Shown: positions 31,339-33,509 of the stretch, piece by piece
Position numbering within the stretch: the stretch's first letter is position 1
Layout of the letters: each line of letters opens with the position of its first letter
NCBI GenBank assembly: GCA_021155965.1
Contig: JAJNBJ010000002.1
Location: 260,289 to 324,288, forward strand
Direction: 5' to 3'
DNA from: Flavipsychrobacter sp.
Lineage (GTDB): Bacteria > Bacteroidota > Bacteroidia > Chitinophagales > Chitinophagaceae
DNA length: 64,000 nt
Made by a program: the position numbers and the translations under genes
Notes under the pieces: model-generated
The model's database searches: none
What the model was told of the DNA's origin: nothing
What the model saw: the letters and a program-made list of their open reading frames with translations, nothing else

Positions 31339-31353
31339 GTGATCCGGATTGGA
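31339..31353. repeat. 15-bp direct duplicate of the tRNA-Arg 3' end (distal att-like site)
   Basis: gtgatccggattgga is identical to 33435-33449 (last 14 nt of the tRNA plus 1 flanking nt), same orientation. Confidence 0.75.
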
Positions 31354-31504
31354 GCTTTTTATTTTACATATAACCTATAGTAATCCCGGCAAATACGCTC
31401 TGGTAAATAGTTTGAGCAAACCCCGATACGAACTATTGTAAAAGGAAGTGAGATAAAATGTAACTCAATTGCCACAAAAATGCGATGCTATTAATGTTGT
31501 CTTG

Positions 31505-31825
31505 CTAATAAGCCAATTTCTTGTTATTGAGTTCTACATTAAAATGAACTTTTGCACCCAGCGCTTCAAATACTTTAAGTATCGTTTCAAATCTGGCATT
31601 TTTGGCACTATTTTCAATTTTCGATATCTGGGCTTTCTGTACACCCACAAGCTCACCCAATTGCTCTTGAGTTAAATTACGAGCGTGCCTGGCTTCCTTA
31701 ATTGCCTGTCCAAGCAAATCAATGCGTAATTCATTTTCAAATTTCTCTCTTTTTTCGGTACCTCTTTTGCCCATGTGCTTATCAAGCATTTGGTCGAGCG
31801 ATACTGTTTTTAATTTATTAGACAT
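31505..31825 (-). CDS. XRE-family HTH antitoxin (HigA-like)
   Basis: 106 aa; ..IKEARHARNLTQEQLGELVGVQKAQISKIENSAKN.. HTH_XRE motif; 8-nt gap after the toxin gene. Confidence 0.8.
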   Translation of the reverse strand: MSNKLKTVSLDQMLDKHMGKRGTEKREKFENELRIDLLGQAIKEARHARNLTQEQLGELVGVQKAQISKIENSAKNARFETILKVFEALGAKVHFNVELNNKKLAY

Positions 31826-31833
31826 AATTGATA

Positions 31834-32175
31834 TTATTTGCTCTTCGTTTCAAAATACTGTTTCCTTATCCTTTCTGCTTTCTCAATTTCCTTAACAGGT
31901 GTTTTTTGTGTTTTCTTTACTATTCCATGTGTTGCAATGACTATTGTTGCATTTCCACGACTTTTATCCCAAAATGAAAACAGGCGATATGCAGTGTGAT
32001 TGTATAGCGTCCTGAATTCCCAGATATTATCATTCAACTTTTTGAAAAGTTCATCATCATTCACAAACTGGGCCTTCTTCAAATTATAATAGATTTTCTC
32101 TCTTGCTTTGGAGTTAAGCAACTCCATAAATTCAATTGCTTCGGAAAGAAATTCTATTTCAAAATTTTTATGCAC
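31834..32175 (-). CDS. Type II toxin, RelE/ParE superfamily (Gp49/HigB-like)
   Basis: 113 aa; ..EFLSEAIEFMELLNSKAREKIYYNLKKA...IWEFRTLYN.TAYRLFSFWDK....IVIATHGIVKKTQKTP pattern of phage Gp49-like toxins; apparent GTG start. Confidence 0.78.
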   Translation of the reverse strand: MHKNFEIEFLSEAIEFMELLNSKAREKIYYNLKKAQFVNDDELFKKLNDNIWEFRTLYNHTAYRLFSFWDKSRGNATIVIATHGIVKKTQKTPVKEIEKAERIRKQYFETKSK

Positions 32176-32201
32176 AGCAATGTTTTGACAAAGATACGAA
32201 A

Positions 32202-32217
32202 TTTCCCATTTGGGAAA
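32202..32217. promoter_or_regulatory. Perfect 16-bp palindrome in the divergent control region (candidate HigA operator)
   Basis: tttcccatttgggaaa, 27 nt upstream of the toxin start and 144 nt upstream of the DUF4365 gene. Confidence 0.4.
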
Positions 32218-32360
32218 CTATTTATTAAAAATTACCAACCGAATTTCAATGGAGTGCTGGAACACCATCTCAGGTCGATTGTACTATGAAAATCAACCTA
32301 ATTGAGCTTAAATATTAGATTTTTAACTACCATTCTATTTAACTCAAAATTCTTTTAAAA

Positions 32361-33344
32361 ATGGCCTACAACATTAGTGAGAGAGCAGGCGTACATGCCG
32401 TTGCTAAAATATTTTTTGAAAATTTCAAATGGATTTTTAGAGAACAACCAATCAATGATTTTGGTATTGACGGATATGTAGAAATGGCGAACTTAATGAA
32501 CAAGAACAATTTACGCCCTACTGGGAAAATAATTGGTGTCCAGATTAAGACAGGAAATAGTTATTTTAGAGAAAGCACTATACGCCACTTTGTATTTCGA
32601 GGTTCAAGAAGGCATCTTGAGTATTGGCTGAATCACTCGTTATCTGTAATCGTAATTTTATACAACAACGAAACAAATTGTGCGTATTGGCAAGAAATAA
32701 CCATCTCGACGGTTACCTTGACAAAAAATAATTTTAAGATCAACATACCAAGGACGAACACCCTAAGCACGAGAAGCAAAGAAGAGTTGACAAGAATCGG
32801 CCATTTTAAAAATCAATATGACTTCAAACTATGGCATTTAAGATCATCAACAGAAATAATAAATAGAATAGTACAGCAACAGTTGTTTCTGTATACGGAA
32901 ATCGAGAGTATTCCGGGTTCTAATGATTATCATATCTCCTTGGTGATAACACAGGAAGAGGATGAAAATTGCGCCAAAGTCATCTACGGTTATAATGACG
33001 ATGCTCACTATTATTCTCTTCTTTTATCGGACGATAATAACATTGCAGAAGGTATTAGCGATGTTATACCCTGGGCGGATCTCTATTACAACGACCGAAA
33101 ATTTGTTGATGAAATGCTTATTGAAACAATAGCAAATGACATCATGAGTTTTAGTGAACCGGAACTGACTGAGGAAATTTTGCAACTTAAAGAACACAAA
33201 TATTGCTTGGCAATGGCTTGTTGCTTATGTGGCAACTATTGTTTTCGATTAGAATTGAAGGCAAATAATTTCGCTCTCAATTTTTTGATGATAAATGAGT
33301 ATTTAGAAAAAGACACGGTCACTAAGCAGAGGATATTTATCTAA
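32361..33344 (+). CDS. DUF4365 (restriction-endonuclease-fold) protein with uncharacterised Cys-rich C-terminal half
   Basis: 327 aa; N-terminal ERAGVHAVAKIF....W.FREQPINDFGIDGYVE...x19...IIGVQIKTG...HLEYWL.HSLSVIVILY....CAYWQEI (DUF4365 pattern); residues about 170-327 unrecognised, ending in CLAMACCLCGNYC. Confidence 0.8.
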   Translation: MAYNISERAGVHAVAKIFFENFKWIFREQPINDFGIDGYVEMANLMNKNNLRPTGKIIGVQIKTGNSYFRESTIRHFVFRGSRRHLEYWLNHSLSVIVILYNNETNCAYWQEITISTVTLTKNNFKINIPRTNTLSTRSKEELTRIGHFKNQYDFKLWHLRSSTEIINRIVQQQLFLYTEIESIPGSNDYHISLVITQEEDENCAKVIYGYNDDAHYYSLLLSDDNNIAEGISDVIPWADLYYNDRKFVDEMLIETIANDIMSFSEPELTEEILQLKEHKYCLAMACCLCGNYCFRLELKANNFALNFLMINEYLEKDTVTKQRIFI

Positions 33345-33390
33345 TTGATAAAGCTATCTAGCGTGGAACTGCCACAAGTTCATAAAAATA

Positions 33391-33431
33391 CATTCACGCA
33401 ATTAATTGTAAATCAATTAATTGCGTGAATG
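33391..33431. terminator. Perfect 18-bp-stem hairpin between DUF4365 gene and tRNA
   Basis: cattcacgcaattaattg taaat caattaattgcgtgaatg; no clear T tract, so it could be a terminator or a recombination/att-associated structure. Confidence 0.45.
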
Positions 33432-33435
33432 TTTG

Positions 33436-33509
33436 TGATCCGGATTGGATTCGAACCAATGACCCTCAGCTTAGAAGGCTGATGCTCTATCCAACTGAGC
33501 TACCGGACC
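33436..33509 (-). tRNA. tRNA-Arg (anticodon TCT)
   Basis: Hand-folded cloverleaf: acceptor GGTCCGG/CCGGATC, D arm GCTC/GAGC, anticodon stem TCAGC/GCTGA with loop CTTCTAA, T arm ATTGG-TTCGAAT-CCAAT, discriminator A; 74 nt, CCA not encoded. Confidence 0.92.

Follow-up and report, generated by a model that had tools for sequence, protein, structure and literature searches.

How does a group of three genes come to lie between a tRNA gene and an exact copy of that tRNA's 3' end, when no integrase is encoded among them? The question is raised by a locus in a 64-kb stretch of DNA (hereafter the window, to which all coordinates refer) from a metagenome-derived genome (MAG) of Flavipsychrobacter, Chitinophagaceae (source contig JGI 3300042904 Ga0456370_0000024, 455 kb). 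The DNA enclosed between the tRNA-Arg(TCT) gene and the copy of its end, hereafter the islet (31354-33434), had been read in a first-pass annotation as a decayed island or as a satellite mobilised by an integrase encoded elsewhere. We conclude, with a probability of roughly 0.75, that the islet is the integrase-less remnant of an element that integrated site-specifically at the tRNA-Arg 3' end, with an older unit carrying an HU-family gene on its distal side.

Results

A duplicated tRNA 3' end encloses a GC-poor islet

ARAGORN and Rfam agree on a single tRNA gene in the window, an intact tRNA-Arg(TCT) on the minus strand at 33435-33509 (Rfam tRNA, 72 bits), which is identical at 75 of 75 positions to the tRNA of the related loci L001, L011 and L012. 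The last 15 nt of this gene (33435-33449) form the proximal copy of the presumed attachment (att) core. An exact match, likewise in minus-strand orientation, forms the distal copy at 31339-31353, which we call scar 1. Read on the plus strand, both copies are GTGATCCGGATTGGA; in tRNA sense the repeat is TCCAATCCGGATCAC, and it runs from the last base of the T-loop through the 3' strands of the T-stem and the acceptor stem to the discriminator and the base that follows it. Because the bases flanking the two copies differ, the repeat is exactly 15 bp long.

The first-pass annotation had described this same-orientation duplicate and had allowed that a 15-mer common at non-tRNA positions would speak against integration. 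The duplicate is exact, and the window holds no third match, even at two or fewer mismatches. None of 100 shuffles yielded two matches (0/100), and the chance expectation for a given 15-mer to recur within 5 kb on one strand is ~5e-6. Both tRNA predictions also place the gene on the minus strand with its 3' end toward the enclosed DNA, as the annotation had it, so that the tRNA end points into 2081 bp bracketed in an attL/attR-like geometry. The T-loop is one of the recognised sublocations at which integrases cross over in tRNAs (bioRxiv 10.1101/2020.11.02.365908).

The enclosed DNA has a GC content of 0.342, as compared with a window mean of 0.439 (z = -2.2), and is the third-lowest GC patch of the window; its tetranucleotide distance is likewise raised (z = 1.9). 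The GC content at third codon positions is 0.33-0.37 in the three islet genes versus 0.45-0.51 in neighbouring core genes. These windowed checks uphold the earlier impression that the islet is richer in AT than its flanks. The adjoining DNA between scar 1 and a further scar described below (islet B, as opposed to islet A, the islet proper) has an intermediate GC content of 0.388, the 10 kb on either side have 0.48 and 0.44, and the low-GC tract is limited to 30270-33434. Two marks of a tRNA-integrated island are thus found here, namely bracketing by direct repeats of the 3' part of the tRNA and a composition atypical of the host.

Hairpins and a third copy of the tRNA end

A hairpin with a perfect 19-bp stem and a 5-nt loop (33390-33408 and 33414-33432, minus strand), followed by ATTTTTAT on the tRNA strand, is separated from the tRNA end by 2 nt (z = -8.2 on the plus strand, -6.7 on the tRNA strand). 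The first-pass annotation had noticed it as an 18-bp stem at 33391-33431; the hairpin abutting the tRNA is real, whereas its stem measures 19 bp and it extends over 33390-33432. It is likely the element-supplied terminator of the reconstituted tRNA, and it also sits at the 3' end of the converging gene for a DUF4365 protein. The possibility that it is a dispersed repeat was rejected: its sequence is unique in the window, and Rfam returned sub-threshold noise there. Scar 1 is followed in the same manner, with a terminator-like hairpin of 11 pairs (31309-31334, minus strand) lying 4 nt past it on the tRNA strand.

Farther out, between a gene for a 2172-aa secreted adhesin and the HU gene, the tRNA end recurs once more in degenerate form, TGATCgGGgTTGGATTC (30427-30443, minus strand; scar 2), which has the same orientation as 33436-33452 and matches it at 15 of 17 positions. 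Here too a terminator-like hairpin (30399-30418, minus strand; 8 pairs, then TTTTTG) comes 8 nt later on the tRNA strand. A 17-mer at two or fewer mismatches is expected by chance 0.0095 times across the window and 2e-4 times in 3 kb on a single strand. In a Smith-Waterman ranking of tRNA-like fragments, scar 2 came third in the window, only 2-3 points over background. Since this gapped ranking barely exceeds background, the significance of scar 2 rests on the mismatch count and the adjacent hairpin. All three tRNA-end copies (3/3) are followed by a terminator-like hairpin 2-8 nt later on the tRNA strand, and a strong hairpin stands shortly past the tRNA in 6 of 6 related tRNA-Arg loci that share the right-hand flank gene. 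Homology between the scar hairpins and the relatives' post-tRNA terminators was also considered and was not significant; the best of 21 comparisons, scar 2 with L011, gave p = 0.04.

Reading outward, the order is tRNA, element hairpin, islet A, scar 1 with its hairpin, islet B and scar 2 with its hairpin. Islet A holds the DUF4365 gene and a toxin-antitoxin pair, and islet B holds the HU cassette. The locus looks like an accretion array of two successive integrations at the same tRNA, in which the islet is the tRNA-proximal unit of two, a point that the first-pass annotation had missed.

The sole gene between scar 2 and scar 1 encodes an HU-family DNA-binding protein (30674-30964, plus strand; Pfam Bac_DNA_binding, 5e-34) and has its own terminator (30981-31010). 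The whole cassette of promoter, gene and terminator (30585-31034) shares 86% nucleotide identity with a 1.5-kb metagenome contig (L027; JGI 3300066486 Ga0606641_0235629), where both flanks are different and the cassette adjoins an HTH_17 gene. The match shows a variable context for the HU cassette, without defining the ends of the HU unit. On that contig (540-1471), the HU cassette and the HTH_17 gene are followed by a run of iteron-like repeats (CGACGATAAC / TGTGGTTAGCAACAAAAT), which suggests a mobile element beside HU. The HU unit is weaker as an integrated element than the islet, because scar 2 is degenerate and the homology to this contig stops short of the scars.

Fragments of tRNA-Arg(TCT) beside integrase genes

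A search of IMG/VR with the last 20 nt of tRNA-Arg(TCT) returned eight contigs. Two of these carry longer pieces, namely the exact last 39 nt (L019) and the exact last 44 nt (L020) of the tRNA, which start in the anticodon loop and lack the 5' half; ARAGORN called no tRNA at either fragment. Behind each fragment stands a terminator hairpin of its own, and each adjoins a Phage_integrase gene, that is, a tyrosine integrase, which in L020 also has a SAM-like N-domain. Because fragments of tRNA-Arg(TCT) stand beside tyrosine-integrase genes in both contigs, this tRNA is a real attachment site. Integrase-bearing elements that target it, and that bring a replacement 3' end together with a terminator, thus exist.

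In L020 (8902-12566; IMGVR_UViG_3300003482_000011), a CAP12/Pycsar-type TIR effector-like gene lies two genes from the integrase, on the contig with the 44-nt fragment. By its predicted genes, L020 is an integrase-bearing element with defence-type cargo at a tRNA-Arg(TCT) att sequence. Two phage contigs of the same collection carry exact 30-nt 3' fragments of tRNA-Arg(TCT) upstream of multi-tRNA arrays (L021, 1764-1783; L023, 2028-2047). No tRNA was called at these fragments, which could be additional attP-like sites or else phage tRNA genes in decay.

Traces of mobility at the islet

The first-pass annotation had remarked on the lack of an integrase in the islet, and the gene content bears this out, as the islet genes encode a helix-turn-helix (HTH) protein, a Gp49 protein and a DUF4365 protein. 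Beyond the islet, no integrase or recombinase was found among the called genes or the open reading frames (ORFs) of at least 150 aa that cover most of the 64 kb. The scan drew on Pfam labels of the source-contig genes and on additional scans; in the first ~1.2 kb it took in the one ORF of at least 150 aa, and at 55-64 kb the ORFs of at least 150 aa. The islet thus lacks the site-specific recombinase of its own that an intact integrative element would have. Its gene content includes no relaxase or transfer genes, and neither terminal inverted repeats nor a transposase were found at the islet.

At the two ends of the islet, 151 bp (31354-31504) and 90 bp (33345-33434) are non-coding. The motif TGCCACAA, which occurs at 31470 and 33370, was considered as a shared end motif or arm-type site and was rejected, since it occurs in the window as often as chance predicts. 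Searches for the exact proteins brought up, besides the source contig, a single identical contig from Logan (L006). This independent assembly is identical to the window over 12.8 kb and breaks inside the tRNA-Arg gene at window position 33464; either a second copy of the tRNA or heterogeneity of the population at this site may account for the break.

If the islet had remained mobile, it would be a non-autonomous element, a satellite or a strict cis-mobilizable element (CIME), with functional attL and attR sites, including arm-type sites in its non-coding ends, and moved by a tyrosine integrase encoded elsewhere in the genome or by an incoming neighbour element. Such a reading is consistent with the perfect core copies (15/15), which imply either a recent event or maintained sites, and with the retention of both non-coding ends and of three intact genes. 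Population heterogeneity at the tRNA, as the contig break in the assembly of the same strain would allow, also accords with it, and CIMEs have been documented to move with an accreted element (PMC5704250). Against it stand the integrase scan of the 64 kb, the lack of enrichment of TGCCACAA, and exact searches in which the predicted circle (attP) junction was absent from viral contigs and the predicted empty-site junction from metagenome contigs. The protein collection likewise contains no second islet copy, the clusters of the islet proteins being singletons, and the contig break may merely reflect another copy of the tRNA gene. On balance, present mobility of the islet seems unlikely.

The tRNA gene marks a synteny breakpoint

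Five related tRNA-Arg loci retain the right-hand flank, four in genomes and one in metagenomes. In the closest relatives the flank protein is 89, 88, 81 and 79% identical; searches of genomes, metagenomes and the protein database with this 304-aa protein gave no relative above 89%. The gene order to the right is kept (flank protein, Fer4, CCG, glycosyltransferase, heparinase, PAS kinase), and in the closest relative 80% nucleotide homology extends over 11 kb and ends at window position 33434, one base past the tRNA 3' end. To the left of the tRNA, the relatives have Fn3 proteins (L001, L012), a Kdp operon (L008) or an 1834-aa metallophosphatase (L011), and when window 30001-33434 was compared with all related loci by blastn and tblastx, nothing homologous turned up on that side. 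Since the right flank is conserved and the left differs in every genome examined, tRNA-Arg(TCT) is a synteny breakpoint across Flavipsychrobacter.

The islet genes, the HU gene and the second core copy were found in none of the five related loci (0/5). The first-pass annotation had proposed to look in relatives for empty sites that end at the 15-mer, and had taken carriage of the same three genes by all relatives as grounds to abandon its reading. None of the five tRNA-Arg loci carries these genes, and the islet and the second repeat are absent in 5 of 5, whereas a true empty site ending at the 15-mer was not found. Because the relatives' DNA left of the tRNA is unrelated, the comparison demonstrates absence of the islet rather than an empty site with the same distal flank.

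With such a variable left side, the scars could instead be internal junctions of a larger island or of a rearranged mosaic, which would take in the HU gene, the adhesin gene and DNA beyond, with the tRNA as a synteny breakpoint. The 2.1-kb unit would then be no element in its own right, only one part of a patchwork assembled at that breakpoint by recurrent insertions and deletions. The occurrence of the HU cassette in another context on L027 would agree with this. However, beyond scar 2 the GC content is normal to high (0.48 at 20000-30269) and the DNA includes apparent core genes, while the low-GC tract ends at 30270 and no further tRNA-like fragment occurs in the window. A larger mosaic would, moreover, overlap the remnant reading and merely enlarge it. 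We consider it very unlikely.

The islet carries a toxin-antitoxin pair

Exactly three credible genes, all intact, were found in the islet, in agreement with the earlier count. Two of them lie on the minus strand: a 113-aa Gp49/HigB-like type II toxin of the RelE/ParE superfamily with a GTG start (31834-32175; Pfam Gp49, 3e-16) and, 8 nt downstream, a 106-aa XRE-family HTH antitoxin (31505-31825; Pfam HTH_3, 6e-12). The XRE protein matches NCBIfam antitoxin families below their own cut-offs. The toxin has more than 4000 homologs that are 70-83% identical over the full length, the nearest 82-83%; many are named RelE/ParE toxin, and relatives occur on small Bacteroides and Parabacteroides plasmids. 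A 16-bp palindrome, TTTCCCATTTGGGAAA (32202-32217), is found 27-42 nt ahead of the toxin start, within the 185 bp that separate the two divergent genes, and by its position is a possible operator of the XRE antitoxin.

Adjacent toxin and antitoxin genes of matching families thus form one operon, as in type II toxin-antitoxin systems. The pair resembles HigB/Gp49-XRE modules, which are abundant on Bacteroidota plasmids, in having the toxin gene first and the XRE-HTH gene second, 8 nt apart, with a palindrome upstream. Nothing notable sets it apart from them; it is an ordinary pair, 82% identical to its nearest relatives.

A DUF4365 protein with a SPARDA-like nuclease domain

The third gene encodes a 327-aa protein (32361-33344, plus strand) with an N-terminal DUF4365 domain (Pfam, 4e-33). 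Three agreeing lines identify this domain as the PD-(D/E)xK 'DREN' nuclease domain of SPARDA short-Argonaute systems. Sequence matches in the PDB are SPARDA DREN-APAZ chains, and they cover residues 4 to ~146. The AlphaFold model, with a predicted local distance difference test (pLDDT) score of 84, matched SPARDA chains in Foldseek with E ~1e-10 and a root-mean-square deviation (rmsd) of 3.6 A over ~150 columns. PADLOC matched only the N-domain of Argonaute-associated REase proteins, again over residues 4 to ~146. The catalytic residues E28, D37, E41, Q61 and K63 do not vary across 25 homologs, so that the active site appears to be intact. For the C-terminal ~180 aa no convincing match was obtained, APAZ included, and structural matches beyond the N-domain had an rmsd of 14-31 A.

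The DREN (DUF4365) nuclease domain belongs to the SPARDA short-Argonaute defence system (PMC10810196, PMC12205087; PDB 9jsb, 9qbq, 9qcc). The N-terminal 145 aa of the islet protein share the fold and the E/D/E/QxK catalytic signature with it. In contrast to SPARDA, the islet has neither a fused APAZ domain nor an adjacent short Argonaute gene, and the homologs of the islet protein stand alone. Because the APAZ and Argonaute parts are absent, the islet does not hold a SPARDA system.

Full-length homologs of the DUF4365 protein form ~20 clusters, 44-53% identical and all from Chitinophagaceae and Sphingobacteriaceae. In three complete or long contigs they stand alone in unrelated accessory contexts: in Flavisolibacter between acetyl-CoA synthetase and YkuD genes, on a metagenome contig beside TIR and SymE genes, and in Pedobacter steynii beside a RhuM/Fic gene. 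The neighbourhoods of the homologs differ, and no conserved partner or tRNA association was found in them. Since the homologs stand alone in unrelated contexts, the toxin-antitoxin pair and the DUF4365 gene are independent modules rather than one system. The DUF4365 protein is probably a nuclease effector that acts as a single-gene defence or conflict module.

A more far-reaching proposal would make the ~330-aa DUF4365 family an uncharacterised single-gene defence nuclease, a DREN effector with a sensor domain of its own in place of APAZ and Argonaute, carried on a minimal, still mobilisable tRNA-att cassette with a borrowed integrase. In this full form we regard the proposal as quite unlikely.

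One homolog was seen in a setting that also involves tRNA genes. In Pedobacter steynii CP017141 (L015, 6973-11258), the DUF4365 homolog is 45% identical to the islet protein and lies with the RhuM/Fic gene in a 4.1-kb segment flanked by two complete, diverged tRNA-Ser(TGA) genes. The homolog converges on a tRNA 3' end, exactly as the DUF4365 gene of the window does.

Other GC-poor patches of the window

The two remaining low-GC patches of the window likewise carry defence-type genes. The lowest (GC 0.31) holds a three-gene operon at 5967-8718 on the plus strand, composed of CTD10 (5967-6794), MC6 (6791-7024) and DUF2326 (7015-8718). From the family names, these genes look like a three-component conflict or defence system around a DUF2326 ATPase. 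The second-lowest patch (GC 0.335) carries a gene for a 625-aa AAA_21/AAA_15 protein, an AbiEii/OLD-like ATPase (56584-58461, minus strand), with several small ORFs downstream of it at 55089-56361. This region is possibly another defence islet.

Discussion

The inference of a decayed island, one of the two readings in the first-pass annotation, is well supported by the repeat geometry, the low GC content, the accessory cargo, the absence of the islet in relatives and the occurrence of integrase-linked tRNA fragments elsewhere. The cargo itself, a toxin-antitoxin pair and a DUF4365 gene, is typical of mobile elements.

Herein, we describe the course of events that would have produced the present arrangement. 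An earlier element would have integrated at the tRNA and left the HU cassette as its only remainder, and its scar would later have been pushed outward by accretion. Site-specific recombination, probably catalysed by a tyrosine integrase with a crossover in the T-loop region, would then have placed a younger element in the 3' end of tRNA-Arg(TCT). The element's copy of the last 15 nt would complete the tRNA, and the AT-rich 19-bp hairpin fits as its terminator. Scar 1 would then be the original chromosomal 3' end, displaced by the insertion, and the hairpin at 31309-31334 the terminator that once served the tRNA. Deletion would later have removed the integrase together with every other mobility gene, leaving a CIME-like remnant bounded by both att cores. 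The predicted addiction to the toxin-antitoxin pair would resist loss of the segment and favour retention of its neighbourhood. Any present-day mobility would need an integrase acting in trans or an incoming element integrating alongside.

Several observations weigh against this reconstruction. Every relative has different DNA to the left of the tRNA, so synteny cannot confirm the distal boundary, and the foreign region could exceed the scars. The sole other contig with the HU gene and the islet, L006 (Logan SRR35179664_475255), is base-for-base identical to the window, and the empty-site junction is absent from metagenome contigs. No donor element was found: the closest DUF4365 homolog shares 53% identity, and when the islet DNA was compared with phage and plasmid collections the toxin gene alone was matched, at ~70%. 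Scar 2 is degenerate, and the homology of the HU cassette to L027 (30585-31034) reaches neither scar. Finally, the core in L019 and L020 is longer and begins in the anticodon loop, so that their integrase class differs from the one that would have made the 15-bp repeat. This difference fits the division of integrase subfamilies in the literature by crossover in the anticodon loop or in the T-loop (bioRxiv 10.1101/2020.11.02.365908), and the two elements are analogous to, but distinct from, the islet's parent.

That the repeats arose by chance, as decayed tandem tRNA-Arg duplicates or as a transposase target-site duplication would suit the absence of a recombinase and of an empty site, but is extremely improbable, given the chance expectations of ~5e-6 and 2e-4, a tRNA similarity that stops sharply in the T-loop and leaves the 5' two-thirds unmatched (unlike the decay of a whole-gene duplicate), the lack of terminal inverted repeats and of a transposase, and the exact coincidence of a 15-bp duplication with the tRNA 3' end, which is the signature of site-specific integration.

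As a remnant, the islet comes closest to the CIMEs. These are decayed remnants of integrative conjugative elements (ICEs) or integrative mobilizable elements (IMEs) that have kept attL and attR and lost the genes for integration and transfer, and they often form tandem arrays at the 3' end of the target gene (PMC5704250). The islet likewise has direct repeats of the target-gene 3' end with both core copies intact, lacks integration and transfer genes, carries accessory cargo including a toxin-antitoxin pair, and has an older scar in tandem. A full-length ICE or IME parent, which a CIME should have, was not found (DUF4365 homologs at most 53% identical, no phage or plasmid match beyond the toxin gene, singleton protein clusters). 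CIMEs were, moreover, defined experimentally in Streptococcus alongside full-length ICEs, with cis-mobilisation shown, whereas the islet comes without parent, helper or evidence of mobility, from a Chitinophagaceae MAG, and as a unit of only 2.1 kb.

Within Bacteroidota, NBU1 and NBU2 use tRNA-Leu and tRNA-Ser 3' ends as integration sites, with a common core of ~13-14 bp. The islet shares with them the phylum, a short core (here 15 bp) at a tRNA 3' end and regeneration of the tRNA by element sequence. NBU elements differ in measuring 10-12 kb and in encoding IntN1, excision proteins, a relaxase and an oriT, none of which is present in the islet. NBU1 is a tyrosine-integrase IME (PMC5704250).

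The tycheposon islands of Prochlorococcus are variable islands anchored at tRNAs, in which partial tRNAs and degenerated elements lie scattered (bioRxiv 10.1101/2020.12.28.424599). There, as we propose here, successive integrations push older material outward, partial tRNAs separate the units, integrase-less fragments persist and part of the cargo is defence-related. In contrast, tycheposons belong to another phylum and integrase lineage, the islet has none of their hallmark genes, and the present array is tiny, with two units in 3 kb.

In conclusion, the locus is a familiar kind of genomic scar, a further example rather than a new mechanism, and it leaves the current understanding of integration or defence unchanged. 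For annotation, an islet of this kind would be missed by island finders that depend on integrase genes. Experimental screens for defence could reasonably include the stand-alone DUF4365 family. The locus is also an illustration of toxin-antitoxin and defence-type genes that survive the elements by which they were brought in. With two nested scars and their stranded terminators, it offers a clean, small example of how the tRNA 3' ends of Bacteroidota collect, and then fossilise, foreign DNA.

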